Source: a virus
Lineage: Duplodnaviria; Heunggongvirae; Uroviricota; Caudoviricetes
Strand: one strand, 5' to 3'
IMG/VR virus record: IMGVR_UViG_2574179916_000007
Length of the DNA: 10,113 nucleotides
Both the position numbers and the translations under genes were made by a program. Shown one piece after another: positions 172 to 10,087 of this stretch (its first letter is position 1; every line of letters starts with the position of its first letter). The notes beneath the pieces were generated by a model. The model made no database searches. It saw nothing but the letters and a program-made list of their open reading frames with translations, and was not told the origin of the DNA.

Positions 172-2301
172 CTATTCCTCAATACCTAACCTGCTTGAAA
201 CCTCAGGCATAACAGTAACCTGAAGGGTTTTTGATGAATCTGTGTTTTTAATTGCTATGCTGATATTGTCAGAAGTGCTGTTATTGTTTGACACTGTTAT
301 AGAGTTTGCATCCACCCCGAGTTTCGAATAAGCATCAGCAAAACTAAGACCAACACTTCCACCAACAACTCTATATGAACCATCAATTCTGAATGACGAT
401 ATATTGTTATTGCTAACATCTCTAATTAGAACCCATATAGAAACACCCCTGAAAACAAGGCTTGCCCCTGATGGTATTTGAAGTGATACAATTCCTGTGG
501 AACCGGGGGGGATACTGCCAGTATATTTAGTTCCGTGCAGATATTTCCCCGGTAGGTCTAAATACGATGTGTCTGGATGTAATAAATTATGTATATGTCT
601 GCTATCTATGCTTCCAGACAGAACCATAGAATCATTGCCATATTCAATTATCCTTCCACCATCGTTACTTATTGTAAGTAATCCTTTGTTTCCTTTATTA
701 TTTCTAACAGTTATATCAGAAGAATCCAGGCGGACAATTGATATATTTTTTTCTGATCCATGACAATAATTTGATGAAATTTCACCTGTAACAAGTGACG
801 TACATAAAATGTCTGAACTTCCATCACTGTCGCCAGTAATAGTGTTGCAGGAAATTAATGCACCATATACCAGACCTGTTGGAGATTCTCCAAATTGCTC
901 TATAGTAATCCGTTTTGTGGTATTTGCTGATATGGTTATATTATGAACATCGTCAGTTTGCGATGTTACTTTGATCCTTGATGAAACTGTATTTCCAGAA
1001 ATAGTAACATTACTTGTATCATCCACCCATAAATATGACGAAAACGTATTACCTGATATGACTGAGTTACTCACCATTGAGTTCTCAAGCTCACATGAAC
1101 CATAGCTATTGTTATGGTCATAATTTCCTATAATCCTTACAAATCCATTCTGGTTAATGAAGTTGTATGATGTTGCATTTTGTCCGCCATAAGTTGAGTT
1201 ATGTGATGTTTCAGCATTTGTAACGCCTATATGTTGAAAATGACCGGCATTTACAGAATCAGGAGCAACTGATGTACACCCTATTACTTTTGTGTTTTTG
1301 ACAATTCTTGAATTAGGGTCATTCTCCAAATAATAGTTTTTTGCAACAAATGCCGTAGAGTAAAAGAAACCTTCAAATCTATTAAATAAAATCTGAATAT
1401 CGTCATAATCTCTTTGGTCTTCATTTGCATAGCAATAAAATGCTCTTGAAGACTCGGAGTAATCCTTGCATTTCTGAACGCCAGATAAAAGTGATCGGAT
1501 TCTGCTAGATTTTATTCTAAATCCGTTGTGAATTAACGTTGCATCACCAACTAATGTTATTGGCTTAAACAATTCAACCTTATCAAAAACAAATTCACCA
1601 CCATAAAATCCAAGTATAGCCCCTTCTGGTACTGCATTAATAGCATTTTGAATTGCTACAGTATCATCTGTTATGCCGTCTCCTTTTGCACCAAAATCAC
1701 GAACACTAATGGTGTCTCTCATCTTATCCTGGAACGTTCGGTACACAGCCCCAGAACCATACTGAATAAACCAACCAAAACCACCAACAACCCCGGCGAT
1801 TGCAGCATCGACATAATTACGCATTGAGCGATTATTTACAGCATCCTGCTCAAGTGATGGATCTGCAAGGTTAGAAATTCTGTTTTGCTTTGCATCGTAA
1901 TATTTTGCAAGCAGAGAGGGCTTCATCAATGCACGTCTGAACCACCCAAAACATTGCTGGATCAGCATCGTCAGGTAGTCAAAGGCATCTTCATGCACTT
2001 CGGGGAAAAATTTTCCCTGATTGCGAAGGTCTGTCTCCTGCACTACATCAAGCACACGATCTATCGTAATTCGCCATCCAGTAGCAAGCGGAGACGGAAG
2101 AACCACAGAACCGCCACTATAAGTGCCCGCCCCAGTTACCGTATAACCGGTATCCAGGACCAATTCTGTTACGTTTCCGTTCAGATCAGACACCTGAACA
2201 ACCAGGTCTGATTTTCTGAAAATTCGAAAAGTATACGGAAACGATGTCGTAACGCCGTTACCGGTGTATTCGTTGTGGTCAACTTCGGTTGAGACCGTCA
2301 T
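172..2301 (-). CDS. Phage tailspike / tail fibre protein with T7 gp17-like N-terminal adaptor and pectate-lyase-like beta-helix (putative polysaccharide depolymerase)
   Basis: 709-aa ORF with ATG at 2301 and GGAG about 8 nt upstream on the minus strand. The N-terminal ~150 aa (YTGNGVTTSFPYTF...VVQVSD...) resemble the T7-type tail-fibre N-terminal domain. The motif DFGAKGDGITDDTVAIQNAI is typical of pectate-lyase-3 / right-handed beta-helix proteins. The C-terminal part is Ser/Asn/Thr-rich and the gene is visibly AT-rich. Confidence 0.85.
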   Translation of the reverse strand: MTVSTEVDHNEYTGNGVTTSFPYTFRIFRKSDLVVQVSDLNGNVTELVLDTGYTVTGAGTYSGGSVVLPSPLATGWRITIDRVLDVVQETDLRNQGKFFPEVHEDAFDYLTMLIQQCFGWFRRALMKPSLLAKYYDAKQNRISNLADPSLEQDAVNNRSMRNYVDAAIAGVVGGFGWFIQYGSGAVYRTFQDKMRDTISVRDFGAKGDGITDDTVAIQNAINAVPEGAILGFYGGEFVFDKVELFKPITLVGDATLIHNGFRIKSSRIRSLLSGVQKCKDYSESSRAFYCYANEDQRDYDDIQILFNRFEGFFYSTAFVAKNYYLENDPNSRIVKNTKVIGCTSVAPDSVNAGHFQHIGVTNAETSHNSTYGGQNATSYNFINQNGFVRIIGNYDHNNSYGSCELENSMVSNSVISGNTFSSYLWVDDTSNVTISGNTVSSRIKVTSQTDDVHNITISANTTKRITIEQFGESPTGLVYGALISCNTITGDSDGSSDILCTSLVTGEISSNYCHGSEKNISIVRLDSSDITVRNNKGNKGLLTISNDGGRIIEYGNDSMVLSGSIDSRHIHNLLHPDTSYLDLPGKYLHGTKYTGSIPPGSTGIVSLQIPSGASLVFRGVSIWVLIRDVSNNNISSFRIDGSYRVVGGSVGLSFADAYSKLGVDANSITVSNNNSTSDNISIAIKNTDSSKTLQVTVMPEVSSRLGIEE

Positions 2302-2496: not shown

Positions 2497-2754
2497 ATGC
2501 AGCAGTATCACTATCCACTGGAAGACGGATTTACCGAAAGGATTCACACGCCGGGAGGCGTCAGGTCACTGGTGGAGGGATCGCACTTGATGAAATTACT
2601 CCGGGATCTCGATAAGGATGGATTTAATGTCGATGGCCCACTTGCCGAACTGACTGCACTGATTAACTACGTCACCAGCTCACAGATGTCTATGCAGGAT
2701 CTGCAAACACATCTCGACTATTGTGCCGAACAATTACGAAAACAAACCACATAA
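2497..2754 (+). CDS. Small (85 aa) antirepressor-like protein, a stand-alone homologue of the Ant C-terminal domain; probably SOS-inducible
   Basis: ATG at 2497 is preceded by GGAG 8 nt upstream. The product (LMKLLRDLDKDGFNVDGPLAELTALINYV...MQDLQTHLDY) aligns with the C-terminus of the 4138..4829 product (LMNLLNQLQEDGHDVSGAAAELTTMFCYI...LRDIQTHAEY). The longer ORF-track start at 2374 would place the LexA box and operator repeat inside coding sequence. Confidence 0.6.
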   Translation: MQQYHYPLEDGFTERIHTPGGVRSLVEGSHLMKLLRDLDKDGFNVDGPLAELTALINYVTSSQMSMQDLQTHLDYCAEQLRKQTT

Positions 2755-2777: not shown

Positions 2778-3284
2778 TTAACAGTCGTAAAATTCTGGGT
2801 CCCACAAACTAGCATCGCGCGGCATGGATTCTAACTTTTTCAGCCGCAAAATTCTGTCACACTCGACAACTAATTTTTGCTTCTGCTCGTCAATTTCTAC
2901 TGTCTTATGTGCTGGTTCATCCCAATAATCCAGAAGGAAGGCATGGCGTTCAGATGTGACCAGATAAATCACATACACGTCACTGGTTGGGATCTTTTTA
3001 TGCTTGTTAGTGGTCTTGTCTTTCTTCCCAGACGCCCAGTTTTTCCAGCATTGTTCCGTACCGCTCTCACCAAACTTGTCAGTATAGTTTCCGATGTTTA
3101 CGTGAACGTGGCGTATGTGATATTCCAGCATTTCTTTCGGTGGATCCCGAAACAGAGTGTCCTTTCCGAAATCCTTATGATGACCGTAGCGCCAGTGATC
3201 TATGAACGCGTTTTTGATAGGTATTAGCTCAGGGTCCTTCCCAAAAATTCCAGGGTGAACCAACCCCTGGAATTTATTCAGCAT
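2778..3284 (-). CDS. Putative toxin of a two-gene module (168 aa); tentatively YafO-like mRNA interferase
   Basis: Start taken at the internal ATG (3284..3282), which overlaps the stop of the upstream gene in the arrangement GATGCTGAATAA (translational coupling). The ORF-track N-terminal extension would overlap the upstream gene by about 100 nt. His-rich motifs DFGKDTLFRDPP...LEYHIRHVHVNIGN and VIYLVTSERHAFLLDYWDEPAH resemble, from memory only, the YafO family (FGRD...HIHL...PEPH). Confidence 0.65.
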   Translation of the reverse strand: MLNKFQGLVHPGIFGKDPELIPIKNAFIDHWRYGHHKDFGKDTLFRDPPKEMLEYHIRHVHVNIGNYTDKFGESGTEQCWKNWASGKKDKTTNKHKKIPTSDVYVIYLVTSERHAFLLDYWDEPAHKTVEIDEQKQKLVVECDRILRLKKLESMPRDASLWDPEFYDC

Positions 3285-3693
3285 CGTCGTAGAGCTCCTG
3301 AGCCATATCTTCGGCAGTGCGTGCAAACATCCTGCGCGAGATTGCATGAGATTTCTCGACGGACATCTTTGGGACCTCATGCATAACATTTTTGGGAGTT
3401 GTGTAATAGCCTATTACAATTTTCACACCTGACTTATGATTAATATCAGCATAATATACTTCTTGTTCAGACGTTTCACGACGAACATAATCTGCCAGTT
3501 TTCCACATTTAAATTCCCCTCCCTGATGTTTTAAAATCTCCTCAACTGCACTATTTTCAGTGAAATACCGAATAAGAAATTTCTGTCCAGACTCTTCAGC
3601 ATGAGGTATAACAGTATTATTGGAAGCCCGAACAATGGCCTTACTCAATATTTCATGGTCTTTATTTTTTTCTGATTTCCTCAAATGCTGCAT
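3274..3693 (-). CDS. Putative antitoxin / partner protein (139 aa from first ATG) of the two-gene module
   Basis: ORF ending 8 nt inside the start of the downstream gene. The first ATG (3693..3691) has AAGAGAG about 8 nt upstream; alternative GTG (3723) or TTG (3729) starts would give up to 151 aa. The C-terminus is acidic (EDMAQELYDDAE), as in many antitoxins. No recognisable DNA-binding motif and no family identified. Confidence 0.6.
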   Translation of the reverse strand: MQHLRKSEKNKDHEILSKAIVRASNNTVIPHAEESGQKFLIRYFTENSAVEEILKHQGGEFKCGKLADYVRRETSEQEVYYADINHKSGVKIVIGYYTTPKNVMHEVPKMSVEKSHAISRRMFARTAEDMAQELYDDAE

Positions 3694-3825
3694 TACTGTA
3701 GCTCTCTTCGTGTTCACGGGCACCCCCAACTACCTCTAGGGTAAACATTCTATCGAAAGTATACGCATACTGGCAAAAAAATAGGCAGGTATTTTCTGAA
3801 ATGGGATAAATCAAACCATATAGGG

Positions 3826-3855
3826 TTGAAATAACGTGAGTTATGCATTTATTAT
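3826..3855 (+). promoter_or_regulatory. Candidate sigma70 promoter reading toward ant
   Basis: TTGAAA (3826..3831), 18-nt spacer, TATTAT (3850..3855). The operator repeat copy 2 begins at the 3' edge of the -10 element. Confidence 0.35.
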
Positions 3856-3870
3856 TACCTTTTCGGTAAA
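3854..3870. promoter_or_regulatory. Operator-like inverted repeat ATTACC-TTTTC-GGTAAA (copy 2 of 3)
   Basis: TTACC-N5-GGTAA with perfect 5-bp arms, overlapping the predicted -10 and transcription start of the ant-proximal promoter. Confidence 0.5.
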
Positions 3871-3962
3871 TTTACATTGCACTCCTCTTGTGCCATAGTA
3901 ATCGGGCACTGGCAAAATCCAGTGCCGGGATTGGTCTCCCGGATTACTACAGAGGCACATAT

Positions 3963-3982
3963 GCCGCATAAGCGGTTTTTTT
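3963..3982 (+). terminator. Terminator-like short hairpin plus U7 within the ant upstream region (possible attenuator or sRNA 3' end)
   Basis: GCCGC-ATAA-GCGG(T) stem-loop followed by TTTTTTT on the plus strand. The stem is short (4-5 bp), so this is weak on its own. Upstream hairpins lie at 3905..3926 and 3925..3942. Confidence 0.35.
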
Positions 3983-4137
3983 ATGTGTAAAGCGCACCTA
4001 TTCTATGGTGGGCTGTGTGGGGGCACCGAAAGGTGCGCCGGGTTCCTTTGTAGCCGGTAAGACCAACTCTGCACAGTTCACCACCATCTGATTGGTCTCA
4101 GCGGTGGTGATTAACCTAACTACAAAGGTGATCGCTA

Positions 4138-4829
4138 TGAATACCAAACCTTCCATCTTTTCCTTTGAGTCATCCTGCCAGATCCGTATGTTCATGATTG
4201 ACGGAGAACCTTGGTTTGTCACCAAAGATGTGTGCAATGCTTTGAATATTGATGTTACACAAGCGAGAAAACTTGATAAAAAAGGCTGGAACAAAAAGGG
4301 GCTGTATTCAATACAGACCCCTGGTGGAATACAAGAACTATCCATCGTTTCAGAATCAGGTCTCTACATCCTTATTCTGCGTTGCAAAGAGGCAATGACT
4401 GAGGGAACGAGAGCATTCAGATTTCTTGAATGGGTTACAGGTGAGGTTCTTCCTCAGATCCGCCGCACCGGAAGTTACATTAAAAACTCGCTCCCGCAGG
4501 AAGAACGCATAAAGATGGTTGCCGACCAGGTAGCCAACGCCACAGCATCAGCAGTGATGCAGGCAATGAAGGTAGAGAACAAAACCTACAGCGCCCCACT
4601 GAAGCCCGGCTACCGCAGCCTGATTCATTCGCCGTCTGGTGTTCTCGGCCTGACGGAGAACTCACTGCTGATGAATCTGCTAAACCAGTTACAGGAAGAC
4701 GGGCACGACGTATCGGGCGCGGCGGCGGAGTTGACCACCATGTTCTGCTACATCGTCGGTGTGAGCAAATGCCTGCGTGATATCCAGACGCACGCGGAGT
4801 ACATCAACGACAAAGCAGGGTTCTTCTGA
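4138..4829 (+). CDS. ant: Phage antirepressor (Bro-N N-terminal domain plus Ant/KilA-C-type C-terminal domain)
   Basis: ATG at 4138 with AAAGGTG 7 nt upstream; the ORF-track start at 4092 is a non-ATG alternative. The N-terminus (FESSCQIRMFMIDGEPWFVTKDVCNALNI...SESGLYILILRCKEAMTEGTRAFRFLEWVTGEVLPQIRRTGSY) matches the Bro-N pattern. The C-terminus is homologous to the 2497..2754 product. Confidence 0.85.
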
Positions 4830-4913: not shown

Positions 4914-4930
4914 ATTACCCGATTGGTAAA
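4914..4930. promoter_or_regulatory. Operator-like inverted repeat ATTACC-CGATT-GGTAAA (copy 3 of 3)
   Basis: TTACC-N5-GGTAA with perfect arms, between the candidate promoter and the GAGG ribosome-binding site of the 4951 gene. Confidence 0.5.
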
Positions 4931-4950
4931 GTCGATTGGTTGAGGTTCAT

Positions 4951-5277
4951 ATGAGCAGAAGATATGTCAAGGAGCTGGCTATAGAGTCTGGCACCCCTTT
5001 GGGTATCGTTCCTGGCTCCAACTATGCCAAGGCTTTAAACCGAGACTCTGTCGTCAAAGTTATATCAAGAGACATGAATATGGTCGGAGACGATCTCAGA
5101 CGGTCAGAAAATCGTGTTTATGCTGAATATATAGTAAAGAACGGAAAAAAAATTGCAGCGCCTGCTGGCGGAAAATGGGCAATAGTGACAGGGAAAAACT
5201 CAAATGCAAGAGGAAAACCAGAAGCTAAAGGAATGTCCTTCGACAAATATGCAAAAATCTATTGGGCAACCAAGTGA
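4951..5277 (+). CDS. Hypothetical basic protein (108 aa); possible regulator
   Basis: ATG at 4951 with GAGG 5-6 nt upstream; the ORF-track start at 4936 is TTG. Lys/Arg-rich product with no recognised motif. Operator copy 3 sits in its leader. Confidence 0.55.
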   Translation: MSRRYVKELAIESGTPLGIVPGSNYAKALNRDSVVKVISRDMNMVGDDLRRSENRVYAEYIVKNGKKIAAPAGGKWAIVTGKNSNARGKPEAKGMSFDKYAKIYWATK

Positions 5278-6036: not shown

Positions 6037-6888
6037 TCACTGTGCAGTTTTCGCTGATCGATTTTCAGCTCTAAATTCAAGAACCGTTTCAATATTTCTT
6101 TCCTTCAGCATATCAATAACATTTTTATTCATTTGACTATCACTGGTTAATAACTGGTAAACGTTGCTTCTCTCTTTATCAGAGTTTTCTTTAACAGCTG
6201 CTTTGCATGCCAAATGCTTATTGAAATTTTCTACATCGCTAGTACAGGAATTTACGGCTGCTGATGAAATATCAGACGCTGAAGAAACACCGTCATCCAA
6301 ACGTTTTATAGCATTTTCTATACATGAGTTAAGGGAATAAACGACAACTGAGCGATACCCTTCAGACGCACACCATTCTAAATTTCTTGAAGGATCGAGT
6401 GGTTTTACTTCGCTGGATTGAATTAACTTGTCAAAAACTGACTTATATTCAATCTGTTTTTTATCTATAGCCCATACTTCAGTAGCTGATTTATAATTCC
6501 CCGTATGCCTATTAACATCAAATCCATGTTTTATAAGCAAATCTGCCCATGAAAGATTTATTGATTCATTGTTATGAGGCCATTTTCCTGTCAGAACCGC
6601 CCCCATAGACCCCATATATCCGCCATATGATGGTATAGCACCATGGCTCAGTAACTTCTCTGCAACCACAGGGCAATTAATTACATAAGAGGCGTAAAGC
6701 CCATTCCATAAAGCCCCTCTATAGTAATCGCCACGATTAGGTTCTTTTAAGTCGATAGCCTTTGATAATTGTTCGCACGTTTTGCATGCATCAAAGTTAT
6801 CCTTATTGCATTGCAATGAACTGGCAGCTGTAGGATTTACAGAGACTATTGAAAGCACTATGCCAAAAAACAAATTTATTTTTTTCAT
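6037..6888 (-). CDS. Secreted or periplasmic protein of unknown function (283 aa), AT-rich moron at the end of the structural operon
   Basis: ATG at 6888 lies 1 nt after the TAG stop of the upstream 1065-aa gene (TAGGATG), implying coupling. The N-terminus MKKINLFFGIVLSIVSVNPTAA is a signal peptide and is not a lipobox. The mature protein has multiple Cys. The gene is visibly lower in GC than the upstream gene. Segments VAEKLLSHGA and ADLLIKHGFDVN weakly resemble ankyrin-repeat helices. Confidence 0.75.
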   Translation of the reverse strand: MKKINLFFGIVLSIVSVNPTAASSLQCNKDNFDACKTCEQLSKAIDLKEPNRGDYYRGALWNGLYASYVINCPVVAEKLLSHGAIPSYGGYMGSMGAVLTGKWPHNNESINLSWADLLIKHGFDVNRHTGNYKSATEVWAIDKKQIEYKSVFDKLIQSSEVKPLDPSRNLEWCASEGYRSVVVYSLNSCIENAIKRLDDGVSSASDISSAAVNSCTSDVENFNKHLACKAAVKENSDKERSNVYQLLTSDSQMNKNVIDMLKERNIETVLEFRAENRSAKTAQ

Positions 6889-6889
6889 C

Positions 6890-9800
6890 CTATTTCATCT
6901 GCTCTTCAACTTTATTTAGTAATGGTGATATCGCCCACAGATTCTGAAAAGGTAGCATTTTACGGACAGCGTGGGTTTGCTGGCTGTCAAATTCTCCGTT
7001 AAGTACACCATTTGCAACCGTCGCGGCATCACCGCCAAGATCAAAGGTAGGACCAAGTAAAGCACCAATAGCATTACGACTCTGAAACCTTGATACCGGA
7101 GGCGCACCAAACATCGCGCCAAGACCAAACCTACCGCCGCTTATGTTCTCAACGGTATTCAGCGGCTCAGAGAGCCAGCCAAGCATTCCGCCCCGGTCGA
7201 TCCCCTCTTTCACAAGGTTATTCCAGCTGTAGTCGATATCGCGACCGCTTAACTTCTGTTTCATCATATAGACCATTGAGCCAAGCGCAATCGTGCCAAG
7301 CGCACCAAGATAGAATGCAGCATCGCCCTGCTGGATACCAGATACTAGCACCCTGTTATGCTGTGCGAAGATAAACGTTTTGAACTGCGTGATCATCTTC
7401 CAGCCTTCTTTACTAAAAAACAGCGGTGTATCACCTACGCCAGGCGTTACAATCACTGAGTCTACATCTTTCAGCACTGCAGACTGGAAAATCTCTCTAG
7501 CGAAACGGTCATCCCACAGATGACTATGCCCGGTTAACAGCCCGTCCATATCCTCTCCGTGCTTCCCGAATTGCTCCCCGATTCGGCGCAGAACATCTTC
7601 ATTGATGCCGACCTGTGCCATCTTCCGCATTTCACTTTTGGAGAGCGTGCCACCAGCAGAAACTTGGCGAGCCGCGTCAAGTATCCTCGACTGCACTATC
7701 ATCCCAGACCATGATTTAAGTGCGCTGTTCCACTGATTCATCAGCGTCCAGTTACCGAATTTCTGCGTCATCCAGTTCAGACCTCGCTCAGCGGCGCTTC
7801 TCCGGCTATAGGGGTCAGTAAGATCCGCTATAGCCTTTGTGCGCGTAGACAGGACATAATCAAGCCCAACTGCCATTTCTCGCAAATCCCTGGTTGCAAT
7901 TTTCACTGAGTCCATATTTTTAAGCATGCTTACCATTGGTCCGAGAGATTTTCTCAGGCCATGCTGCATCATCGGTCGCATCAGATCAGTTGCAGCGGAG
8001 ACGGTCATTCCACCAAGCAAACGGAGGAAGTTAATATTCCTAGCAACTCGCCCGGCACGAACAAAGAAACTGCGTGGATCTTGAGGTGCGCCGTAAGTAC
8101 CAAGCAGTCGGTCACGCATAGCCGTAATATCCCTAATATCAGCCTCCCGTTGCTTCTCAAGAGCTGCACGTCGTTTAGGTGTTTTAGCCTCTTTTATTAG
8201 CCGGGTATATTCCTCACTAACCTGACGGATTTGCTCCCCCATATCTTTACGGCCAAACTGCGCAGTCAGCTCAATTTCTGGTGCCACCTGCCGGAGATAA
8301 CTTTCCATGATGTAGTTAACATCTGATTCAAGAAAATCTTCTATACGCTCATCAGGAATAAGCAGCGTTCGGCTTTTAGTGAAACCAGCCCGACCAACGA
8401 GTCTCTCTGGGATAATATCGGCTGGTACAAGCCCGGAAGGTGCGCCTATTATTTTATTCACGATCTCGTCAGCAGCGTCCTCTGCTTCCTCTCGGGATAG
8501 AGGCTCCATCTGCTTCAGTGCTCGCTCGCGGCTTGCATTCAGCCTTGTGGTTGAATTTGCCCGTTTTTGCAGTCGGCGAAGCTCAGAACGATATTTCCGT
8601 GGATTATCCAGCAACTCCATATGGCGCTGATAGACAGGAAGCTCACTCTTTGCCTGCGCTATATCATCAAGGCGTGTTTTAAGGTCAGAGCTTTCTTTCA
8701 TCATTCTTGCCTGAAGTTTTTCTGATGAAGTCTCGGCCAACTCTTTTTCTATTCTTGTAAGACGCGCCTGTGTGTCAGTCTCCTGAGATATAAGCTTATT
8801 TCGTTTATCCAGTTCTTCCATGAGTAGAATTTTTTTACCAGACCATTTCTCCGCTTCAGCGATTTCACTAGCGAGAGCATCAGCGCGCGGTGCTGATTCC
8901 TCTGCAGTTTTTAGCAATGAATTTATCTTTTCAATTCGCTGACCTGCTTTGTCAGCACCTTTGGCACTAATCCCTTGTATCCAGTTGGCAATTCGCCCTC
9001 TGAATTCAGTGCGGTCGGAAAGTATCTTATCGAACTTATAAATGCGGGGAAGATAACTCTTCGCCGTCACGACATCGATATCCTCAGGAAGGATCCCCAA
9101 TTCCTGCATACGGGCTTTTGTGGTCTCAAAAATGGGGCGGATTCTGGCGGCTGCTTGTGAAACCTCAGGAATATCACTCTGATCACCACGGCGCATAGCC
9201 ATGCCAACAGCTTCATTGAAATCAATAAAGTTCATCCTCTTCACGCCGCGGGCGCTGACAGATTTGCTGTACTGCTGGTAAGCATCACGAGTAGCTTCCA
9301 TCTGCTTATAAAGCATGGCGTCGTATTGCTTAATCTTAGTCTCGACTGCCGTAAACGTAGCCAACCCCTCATCATTTTTGGCGAAGAAATAGTTATTTTC
9401 GGCAAGCTGCTGGTTAATCTGACGGGAAACAAGAGATGGTGATTGCGCCAAGCGGCCAGCAGGAGTGACACTCAACGTTTTGTTAGCAAGTCCAAGTCCA
9501 GCAAGCTGTTCCTGATCGAGTGTGGTATTGAAAACCTGAGCTGCACCAATGCTTTGAGGAGAATCCATACCTCGCAAATGATTACCTACTGAGTTAACCA
9601 CTGCCTCGCGCGCGCTAGGTCCAGCAAGTAGCTGTGCACCAGCACCAAGGATCCCACCAACGAGAGCATCAACAACAACGTTCGATACGCTCTCCATCGG
9701 TGAGCGAGCTTCCTGAGTGGCCTGCAATGCGGCCTCTGAAGCAACACTGCCAGCAGCATTGGCTAAAGCAAAACGTCCGGCTGTTTCTGCAATACGACCG

Positions 9801-10087
9801 CCACGAACGACAGCGCCGAACGGAATAAACATAGAAATCGCATTGAATGGATCTGCTAATCTCATTGCTACAGAAGAGACTGTACCAGCAAATCCCAAGC
9901 CTGAATTGTATTCCATGTCAGCTCTCTGCTGATCGATTCGATGTTTAATTGCCATTGTTTCTTCATGCGAACCGGAGTTGATAAACGAATCTGCAAAATC
10001 TTCATAGCCTTTAATATCTGCTGCATCGTTATCAAATGGGTTATATCCTTCAACCCTGTTAGACTGGCCCCCTGAATCTCCAGACAA
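6890..10087 (-). CDS. Large virion-associated protein (1065 aa); candidate internal/ejection protein or tape-measure-like protein
   Basis: Uninterrupted 3.2-kb ORF. It is predominantly alpha-helical with charged coiled-coil-like central segments (for example [34 protein letters not shown]) and Gly/Ala-rich hydrophobic segments near both ends. It occupies the last position of a structural operon before the immunity module and tailspike. The start is probably TTG at 10087, 6 nt after an in-frame TGA; the next ATG is at 9955. No catalytic motif was recognised. Confidence 0.8.

Follow-up and report, generated by a model that had tools for sequence, protein, structure and literature searches.

The region at positions 3856-4137 of the viral record IMGVR_UViG_2574179916_000007, whose 10,113 nt on one strand are called here the window, lies immediately upstream of ant, the gene of a Bro-N antirepressor, and was described in an earlier note as a structured leader. 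This leader is two described small RNA genes in tandem, isrK and then c4, together with target sites of the c4 RNA that lie upstream of the antirepressor and on the ant ribosome-binding site. The locus is one more copy, so far unannotated and in no way unusual, of an RNA immunity switch that is already known, and it adds no new kind of mechanism. Its functional core is a set of complementarities between the segments a1/b1 of IsrK, a'/b' of c4, and a2/b2 of the ant leader, arranged in the same order (a1-b1-c4-a2-b2) as annotated in phage P1. The region probably serves as the RNA immunity module of a Uetakevirus-type prophage, built like the immI region of P1, in which c4 would block ant and IsrK would act as a decoy of c4.

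Two small RNA genes and their pairing sites

The features of the leader and the regulated gene are as follows.

3826..3855 (+), upstream promoter-like site TTGAAA-18-TATTAT, 10/12 consensus matches
3855..3869 (no strand), palindrome TTACC-N5-GGTAA, candidate operator, abutting the -35 box of the IsrK promoter
3871..3899 (+), predicted promoter of IsrK, c4, and ant: -35 TTTACA, 17-nt spacer, TG, -10 CATAGT
3906..3982 (+), IsrK small RNA (a1/b1 element), Rfam RF01394, 74.7 bits (cut-off 50), model positions 1-77 of 77
3906-3925 (+), IsrK hairpin 1, 7 bp (3906-3912 with 3919-3925) plus G3905-C3926
3926-3941 (+), IsrK hairpin 2, overlapping the hairpin 1 region
3931..3937 (+), a1 site UUGGUCU, presented by the loop of IsrK hairpin 2 and able to pair with a' of c4
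3947..3955 (+), b1 site CUACAGAGG, unpaired in the stretch from hairpin 2 to the terminator and able to pair with b' of c4
3963-3976 (+), stem of the IsrK intrinsic terminator, with U7 to 3982 (terminator scan); extended A/U stem 3956-3987
4001..4088 (+), c4 antisense RNA gene, Rfam RF01695, 78.6 bits (cut-off 45), model positions 1-87 of 87
4006-4022 with 4067-4083 (+), c4 closing stem, 17 bp (Rfam fold, covariation)
4023-4036 (+), c4 hairpin 1, GCACC 4023-4027 with GGTGC 4032-4036
4037-4058 (+), c4 hairpin 2 with a 12-nt loop (Rfam fold, covariation)
4045..4053 (+), b' segment CCUUUGUAG, exposed in the 12-nt hairpin 2 loop of c4, opening cost 1.5 kcal/mol
4060..4066 (+), a' segment AGACCAA in the single-stranded junction of c4, opening cost 0.0 kcal/mol
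4088..4101 (+), small hairpin presenting a2; its stem (4088-4091 with 4098-4101) co-varies
4092-4098 (+), a2 site UUGGUCU, 3 nt past the c4 match, 7-bp contact with a'
4103..4110 (+), conserved GGUGGUGA element, able to form a helix with one of two partners, the c4 3' strand (4078-4085) or 4131-4136
4120..4128 (+), b2 target CUACAAAGG, 9-bp contact with b', overlapping the ant Shine-Dalgarno sequence AAGGUGA (4125-4131)
4137..4829 (+), ant, the regulated gene, Bro-N antirepressor of 230 aa (Pfam Bro-N, E = 1.9e-13; PHROG anti-repressor Ant, E = 4e-51)

The earlier note had suspected that ant is under RNA control and had named P1 c4 as an analogue. Both points are supported. The c4 gene itself, at 4001-4088, had been missed, as had the complementarities among a1/b1, a'/b', and a2/b2. 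A further Rfam family, the c4-a1b1 motif (RF03163), aligned at 3893-3945 with 39.9 bits, under its cut-off of 46.7, which is passed by P1 and VT2-Sakai and not by the window. This motif overlaps the 5' two-thirds of isrK, one element being described by two Rfam families. All features by which membership in the C4 and isrK families can be judged from sequence were found in the locus. A promoter-like site in the conserved position (3871-3899) and a terminator (3963-3982) would fit an isrK gene with a promoter of its own and partial read-through into the antirepressor operon. The locus lacks only an RF03163 score above the cut-off and the coupling to orf45 known from Gifsy-1, which is a feature of the Gifsy-1 mechanism and not of the isrK RNA family. 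Matches to FtrA, RT-7, and the L20 leader in the window and to mir-1231 in the P1 locus were far under their cut-offs and were disregarded, and no tRNA or tmRNA was found in the window.

The proposal that the leader is structured was borne out by the folding of its 305 nt (3856-4160), which gave -119.4 kcal/mol against a shuffle mean of -87.9 (z = -6.6, 0/100 shuffles as good). It is the sense strand that carries the conserved structure as well as the terminator. Folded alone, IsrK forms exactly three hairpins, matching the Rfam structure, and all of them had been noticed before: the 8-bp hairpin at 3905-3926 is IsrK hairpin 1, the overlapping hairpin at 3925/3926-3941/3942 is hairpin 2, and the hairpin with U7 at 3963-3982 is the terminator, which was also detected by a terminator scan. 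Similarly, c4 folded alone adopts its Rfam structure, a three-way junction that resembles a tRNA, its acceptor-like stem being continued by 3' ACCA. P1 c4 (18344-18420) aligns to 4007-4085, and by this analogy the mature c4 RNA is predicted to span these positions.

The a2 and a1 sites are identical in sequence and in their presentation in a loop. The contact of b1 with b' has 9 bp, one of them G-U, and opening b1 costs 0.25 kcal/mol. The b2 site ends 8 nt before the ATG of ant, and its overlap with the Shine-Dalgarno sequence is observed in the window and in most relatives. On the plus strand of the whole window, b1 and b2 are the only b-type sites. Both downstream sites arose by chance in 3/5000 shuffles and both upstream sites in 1/5000; since this single-sequence test is only moderately strong, the argument for the complementarities rests on covariation.

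The ant gene lies directly downstream of the leader on the same strand as c4 and starts with the ATG at 4137, not at 4138 as had been given, where translation runs into 17 stop codons. The earlier finding of no convincing open reading frame (ORF) in the leader was upheld. The only sense-strand ORF, from ATG 4005 to TGA 4089-4091 (28 codons), lies inside c4 and ends 45 nt before the ant ATG. A 1-nt indel shortens it from 28 to 15 codons between relatives of ~99% identity, and across the family it varies from 8 to > 48 codons, neither length nor frame being conserved. The minus-strand ORFs 3841-3969 and 3998-4345 have no Pfam family match. On these grounds the coding reading of the leader was rejected.

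Public records of identical and related phages show over the isrK and c4 RNAs nothing, a bare "terminator", or protein-coding genes: an "Ash family protein" in Hafnia phage yong2 (L089 988-1671), orf34 in VT2-Sakai (L004 1563-1736), a minus-strand hypothetical gene in a Klebsiella phage (L086 1323-1520), and a hypothetical protein in phage EC.W1-9 (PP445227 26860-28060). These genes are probably spurious, or their starts have been set too far upstream. The region is to be labelled as two non-coding RNA genes plus c4 target sites.

Covariation across homologous leaders

A covariance analysis of homologous leaders had been proposed by the earlier note. We compared 47 distinct leaders: 33 IMG/VR contigs with Ant relatives, and those of phiV10, Tyrion, three Klebsiella phages, Hafnia phage yong2, Yersinia vB_YpM_41, Moraxella Mcat4, IdasGreatGrand, VT2-Sakai, APSE-2, APSE-7, and P1. 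The controls were 500 shuffles and slid pairings. In the three IsrK hairpins and three c4 helices, 97.5% of cells were paired, and 24 pairs had changed on both sides, a number reached in 0/500 shuffles; slid pairings were formed in 35-44% of cells. In particular, the three c4 helices were paired in 94.9-99.9% of cells with 9, 5, and 2 doubly changed pairs, respectively, and the same c4 fold was recovered de novo by RNAalifold.

These data also allow the pairings postulated earlier between GCACC segments and GGTGC to be judged. That of GCACC 4023-4027 with GGTGC 4032-4036 is real and forms c4 hairpin 1, with compensatory changes in all five of its pairs (5/5). The other segment is located at 3994-3998, not 3993-3997, and its helix with the same GGTGC was paired in 72% of cells versus 69% in shuffles, its number of doubly changed pairs being reached in 337/500 shuffles.

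The contacts between RNAs are conserved in the same manner. For a'-a2 and b'-b2 together, 91.1% of cells were paired, with 10 doubly changed pairs (0/500 shuffles; slid pairings 25-47%). Taken separately, a'-a2 was paired in 97.3% of cells with four pairs changed on both sides, and b'-b2 in 85-88%, despite alignment noise, with six. For a1-a' and b1-b' together, the corresponding numbers are 94.6% and 12 doubly changed pairs (0/500 shuffles); a1-a' alone was paired in 97.9% of cells with four doubly changed pairs, and b1-b' in 91.9%, with 8 of its 9 pairs changed on both sides. The identity of both RNAs, their folds, the four complementarities, and the co-variation of these are thus direct observations of this analysis, and the substitution patterns are strong evidence that the a and b contacts are under selection.

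The per-sequence table contains at least five a-types (GGUCU, GGCGU, GAGAC, GACCU, and GACAG) and at least ten b-types, and each a- or b-type changes in step across the three copies of its site. Two IMG/VR contigs, L010 and L040, are natural recombinants that combine the GGCGU a-type with the b-type of the window, so the a and b recognition segments recombine independently. Such covarying types fit the known basis of P1/P7 heteroimmunity, as stated in a review.

One more conserved pairing involves the GGUGGUGA element, which copies the 5' strand of the c4 closing stem. Its helix and the a2-presenting hairpin were paired in 95% of cells, with six pairs changed on both sides (0/500 shuffles), and RNAalifold paired GGUGGU with 4131-4136 just 5' of the ant AUG (columns 227-232 with 265-270). 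This element may couple the excision of c4 to how accessible the ant start site is.

The loop of IsrK hairpin 1 (3912-3919), GCAAAAUC, is near-invariant from Moraxella phage Mcat4 to the phages of E. coli, while its stem co-varies; in P1 the loop reads GCAAAUUC. In one leader, L027 (alignment A1 columns 13-20), it is inverted, with GGATTTTGCC in place of GGCAAAATCC, which reflects either a hairpin-mediated inversion or an assembly artefact. A search of the window found no sequence complementary to GCAAAAUC, and the partner of the loop may be a protein or a host RNA.

The arrangement of the two genes is also constant. In all 18 loci scanned with Rfam, isrK lies ~20-25 nt upstream of C4, and in P1 the c4-a1b1 motif lies ~67 nt upstream of C4. 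The gene after the isrK-C4 pair was of an antirepressor type (Bro-N, ORF6N, P22_AR_C, Rha, or P1 icd-ant) at every locus examined. In the Hafnia (L089 1438-1671) and Yersinia (L091 1435-1626) phages, an ORF of 63-77 aa follows c4 and overlaps the start of the antirepressor-type gene, like icd in P1, whereas in the epsilon15-like, Klebsiella, and APSE loci c4 leads straight into ant; the family thus has two architectures.

The putative switch and its alternatives

How c4 is processed, in which direction each regulatory effect acts, and that IsrK serves as a decoy are modelled here on P1 and Gifsy-1. Transcription would start near 3906 from the promoter at 3871-3899, possibly also from a second promoter at 3826-3855, and may be subject to the operator-like palindrome at 3855-3869. 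Most transcripts would end at the terminator 3963-3982 and yield the 77-nt IsrK, with a1 in a hairpin loop and b1 single-stranded, while read-through transcripts would carry c4 (4001-4088) and ant. From the latter, RNase P and a 3' nuclease presumably release c4, as they do in P1. Pairing of a'/b' of c4 with a2/b2, where b2 covers the Shine-Dalgarno sequence, would prevent translation of the antirepressor; the prophage would then stay repressed and possess type-specific immunity against superinfecting relatives. The a1/b1 segments of IsrK would pair with a'/b', whether IsrK is still part of the read-through RNA (in cis) or is the separate short RNA (in trans). As a decoy, IsrK would thereby free ant from the block by c4, comparable to its effect on the antirepressor AnrP of Gifsy-1.

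In P1, studies by Citron & Schuster in 1990 and 1992, Biere et al. in 1992, and Hartmann et al. in 1995 reportedly described the processing of c4 by RNase P and Rho-dependent polarity. In the same studies c4 is said to be cut from the read-through transcript and to block the ribosome-binding site via a'-a2 and b'-b2.

Hairpin 1 is preceded, at a distance of 6-7 nt, by the end of a promoter-like site in the window, in P1 (annotated P1c4, former P51b), in Gifsy-1, VT2-Sakai, APSE, and others, and the position of the site at 3871-3899 predicts a start near 3906 and a 77-nt IsrK. The earlier note had instead placed a promoter/operator at 3826-3870 and had considered a small RNA of about 120 nt ending at the U-tract. 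Such an RNA is indeed expected and corresponds to IsrK; its predicted length is shorter, and the promoter whose position is conserved in every homologue is the downstream one. The site at 3826-3855 is nevertheless a good consensus match. In relatives, too, a -10-like hexamer directly adjoins the palindrome at this place, whereas the -35 of the site lies outside the conserved sequence block, the homology to other relatives starting near 3845. By analogy the site may be a second promoter, the counterpart of the upstream P2c4 (former P51a) of the P1 tandem pair. If it is used, a species of ~120 nt would arise. The palindrome between the two sites has invariant arms and a variable spacer in the epsilon15-like relatives.

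For the read-through RNA 3906-4165 we computed two mutually exclusive folds. In the minimum-energy fold (-100.5 kcal/mol) a1/b1 and their flanks are paired to a'/b' in cis through an interrupted helix of 24 bp, and the c4 3' strand (4078-4085) is paired with GGUGGUGA (4103-4110). The alternative fold (-94.9 kcal/mol) contains the IsrK hairpins and the c4 cloverleaf. These two folds correspond to structures A and B of Gifsy-1. The earlier idea of mutually exclusive helices therefore holds for the RNA as a whole, and not for the alternative between GCACC and GGTGC that had been proposed, which is not conserved. The energies of the a and b duplexes are the same for decoy and target (about -8 and -10.8/-10.9 kcal/mol), and opening the sites costs 1.6 kcal/mol in IsrK versus 9.7 in the ant mRNA; at equal duplex energy, c4 should prefer IsrK.

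Gifsy-1 provides the experimental counterpart. There, pairing of IsrK with the c4/orf45 region and its activation of the antirepressor in trans have been demonstrated, IsrK raising anrP translation 139-fold, and the mutations G28A, G31A, C162U, and C159U were tested with compensatory changes (PMC4825925). Counted from the start of IsrK, G28 and G31 fall in a1, C159 and C162 in a', and AUG107 is the conserved AUG at the c4 5' end; the pairing of the middle part of IsrK with the c4/orf45 region (G28-C162, G31-C159) is represented in the window by a1-a', which is present and co-varies.

Several points weigh against the interpretation of IsrK as a decoy of an antisense c4. Expression, processing, and binding of the RNAs in the window prophage are all extrapolated by analogy. 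Standard cofolding does not predict the loop-loop contacts: RNAcofold gave free-energy differences (ddG) of 0.0 and -0.5 kcal/mol for c4 with the ant leader or with IsrK, showing no gain over shuffled partners, and RNAduplex runs of these pairs implied unrealistic full unfolding. Neither program can model such contacts; the energetics were computed instead as segment duplex energies plus opening energies, and the energetic argument thus rests on separate terms. The IMG/VR leader L019 combines a GGCGU-type a1 with a' and a2 of the GGUCU type, so its IsrK a contact is impossible and a1 pairing is not indispensable. In Gifsy-1, mutations of a1 in cis raise basal antirepressor translation (PMC4825925), the opposite of the prediction from a pure decoy, which thus does not fully explain the Gifsy-1 data. 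The authors of that study ascribed control to a translated orf45 and cis refolding, not to c4 acting on a2/b2, and the toxicity of IsrK was not relieved by co-expressing c4-containing RNA (PMC4825925).

The last result bears also on a possible additional layer of control, raised by Hershko-Shalev et al. by analogy with P4 CI, seqA, and seqC (PMC4825925). Free c4 bound to nascent a1/b1 would alter IsrK termination and so feed back on transcription of c4 and ant. This layer is compatible with the favoured decoy and antisense model; b1 (3947-3955) directly adjoins the extended terminator stem (3956-3987), and a1/b1 co-vary with a'/b'. Given that in Gifsy-1 the effect of IsrK was not reduced by co-expression of c4-containing RNA (PMC4825925), we consider it rather unlikely.

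The mechanism proposed for Gifsy-1 itself would work differently: the read-through RNA would be locked, IsrK would open it, the ORF at AUG 4005 would be translated with ant coupled to it, and c4 would not act as a free antisense RNA. AUG 4005 is conserved and matches AUG107 of orf45, both alternative folds are present in the window RNA, and the Gifsy-1 genetics are experimental. However, the 28-codon ORF stops 45 nt before the ant ATG, with no overlap of start and stop like the Gifsy-1 ATGA; its length is unstable, as described above; and the co-variation of a2/b2 with a'/b' is left unexplained. Furthermore, the Gifsy-1 double mutants G28A/C162U and G31A/C159U remain derepressed (224 and 327 units versus 4 in the wild type; PMC4825925), as we would expect if a' must also pair with a2. 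Such control is therefore improbable for the window.

In another reading IsrK, whose Rfam family is described as Hfq-binding, would mainly be a trans-acting, Hfq-dependent small RNA for host mRNAs, its position beside c4 being incidental. The near-invariant hairpin-1 loop, partnerless in the window, would suit such a role, which nevertheless appears quite improbable in view of the fixed spacing of isrK and C4 in 18/18 loci, the P1 motif being at ~67 nt, and of a1/b1 segments that follow the c4 type of the same phage. Finally, it is highly improbable that the leader is a cis-acting transcription attenuator, as the earlier note had suggested, in which alternative helices would set the formation of the terminator 3963-3982 and hence ant expression with no trans RNA: a conserved intrinsic terminator does lie between promoter and ant, and ant transcription does require read-through, but no conserved anti-terminator partner was found for the terminator stem, the GCACC/GGTGC alternative shows no covariation, all possible partners of b1 lie downstream of the terminator and are thus not yet transcribed at the termination decision, and the downstream structured part is a separate, well-defined RNA gene.

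Genomic context and comparison with known systems

The window derives from an epsilon15/phiV10-like (Uetakevirus) temperate podovirus or prophage of E. coli. The 1.2 kb surrounding the leader are 100% identical to phage EC.W1-9 and to prophages of many E. coli chromosomes, and related DNA is present in 484 of 5426 complete E. coli genomes (~9%), and it is in this prophage family that the proposed RNA-based, type-specific antirepressor lock is located. The leader is situated between the tailspike gene (172-2301, minus strand) and large genes of the virion or injection type (6037-10087, minus strand).

The window contains four copies of the palindrome TTACC-N5-GGTAA, three perfect and one with one mismatch, versus 0.23 expected (0/200 shuffles reach four). 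All are in intergenic regulatory regions (no strand):

2406-2420, before the ORF 2497-2754
3730-3744, before the minus-strand toxin operon
3855-3869, at the -35 box of the IsrK promoter
4915-4929, before the ORF 4936-5277

This distribution suggests that one repressor may control the whole accessory segment via the palindromes. The ORF 2497-2754 (plus strand, 85 aa), similar to epsilon15 gp19, shows 42% identity over 74 aa to Ant C-terminal residues 149-222; judging by this similarity, it appears to encode a stand-alone version of the C-terminal domain of Ant, and an operator-like palindrome precedes it. The toxin operon comprises a YafO-family type II toxin gene (2778-3284, minus strand) preceded by an overlapping ORF of 147 aa (3274-3717, minus strand), which is presumably the antitoxin, according to the RefSeq annotation of an identical prophage. 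The pair forms an insertion with the epsilon15 gp19-like gene on one side and the IsrK promoter on the other, and phiV10 lacks it at this place.

Among known systems, the immI region of P22 resembles the window in general layout, with a podovirus antirepressor located between injection-protein and tailspike genes and silenced in part by a small RNA. It comprises sar, arc, mnt, and ant, the sar antisense RNA being transcribed from the opposite strand across the ant ribosome-binding site. In contrast, the regulator in the window is encoded upstream on the same strand and acts, in the proposed model, through two short loop contacts, which sets it apart from the sar type; no Rfam match to sar was found in the window on either strand.

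The isrK-orf45-anrP locus of Gifsy-1 is closer. It has an IsrK with the same three hairpins and terminator, a c4-like RNA (STnc1160/orf45), and an antirepressor, and the long-range a1b1:a'b' pairing is likewise the most stable fold of the read-through RNA (PMC4825925). The two loci differ in the 45-codon ORF of Gifsy-1, which runs through c4, shares an ATGA overlap with the start of anrP, and reportedly undergoes translation (PMC4825925), whereas the window has the unconserved frame of 28 codons. Their recognition types also differ: GGCGU and AUCACCG for a and b in Gifsy-1, GGUCU and CUACAAAGG in the window.

The arrangement of isrK, c4, and a Bro-N gene is already known from the APSE phages of Hamiltonella, in all of which Rouil et al. 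2020 found the isrK and c4 pair, with a'/b' matching the region upstream of the Bro gene (PMC7313666). As in the window, isrK and c4 lie directly before the Bro-N gene, with no small gene between (PMC7313666), and the APSE-7 record has both non-coding RNAs and the a'/b' regions annotated. Nucleotide identity to the window is ~70% over the leader, and the a and b types differ.

The closest parallel in overall design is the immI region of P1/P7 (RF01695, RF03163), which has, like the window, a promoter, a1, b1, c4, a2 beginning 3 nt after c4, b2 on a Shine-Dalgarno sequence, and an antirepressor operon. The annotated P1 a1, b1, c4, a2, b2, and icd-ant start correspond to window positions 3931-3937, 3945-3952, 4007-4085, 4089-4095, 4119-4126, and 4137, respectively. 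P1 c4 also folds into a three-way junction, in which a' occupies the junction itself and b' the hairpin 2 loop. Type-specific recognition segments are, according to a review, the basis of P1/P7 heteroimmunity. The systems differ in host element (an epsilon15-like podovirus versus a P1-like plasmid prophage) and in the gene whose ribosome-binding site is covered by b2, which is ant itself in the window and icd in P1. P1 icd has 73 codons and its translation is required for ant expression, whereas no small gene is coupled to ant in the window. Finally, the segment between b1 and c4 contains a strong intrinsic terminator in the window and only a weak version in P1, where a hairpin and then a U-run occupy the place of the IsrK terminator; the terminator scan was negative there, and none is annotated in the P1 record. 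The P1 leader from the P1c4 promoter to c4 (18231-18312, L094) matches the isrK model over its full length with 35.1 bits, under the cut-off of 50 (E = 3.7e-6).

Two comparative points are mildly new. From their sequences, IsrK and the P1 a1/b1 leader appear to be the same element, and the a and b segments appear to form a two-segment specificity code that is widely shared and recombined. As a tentative generalization, which we find nearly as probable as its negation, every c4-type immunity module may use IsrK as its decoy against c4, which would then not be peculiar to Salmonella, and the P1 a1/b1 leader would be a weak IsrK homologue. Each module would consist of three RNAs that together form a switch: a decoy, an antisense RNA, and a target. 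If so, two independently recombining segments would define many heteroimmunity classes across unrelated temperate phages, shared among epsilon15-like, Stx lambdoid, APSE, P1-like, and Moraxella phages, and the explanation of Gifsy-1 control through orf45 would partly describe a by-product of c4 acting on a2/b2. The comparative table of leaders joins the P1 c4 and Gifsy-1 IsrK literatures and supplies natural compensatory variants for the decoy model.

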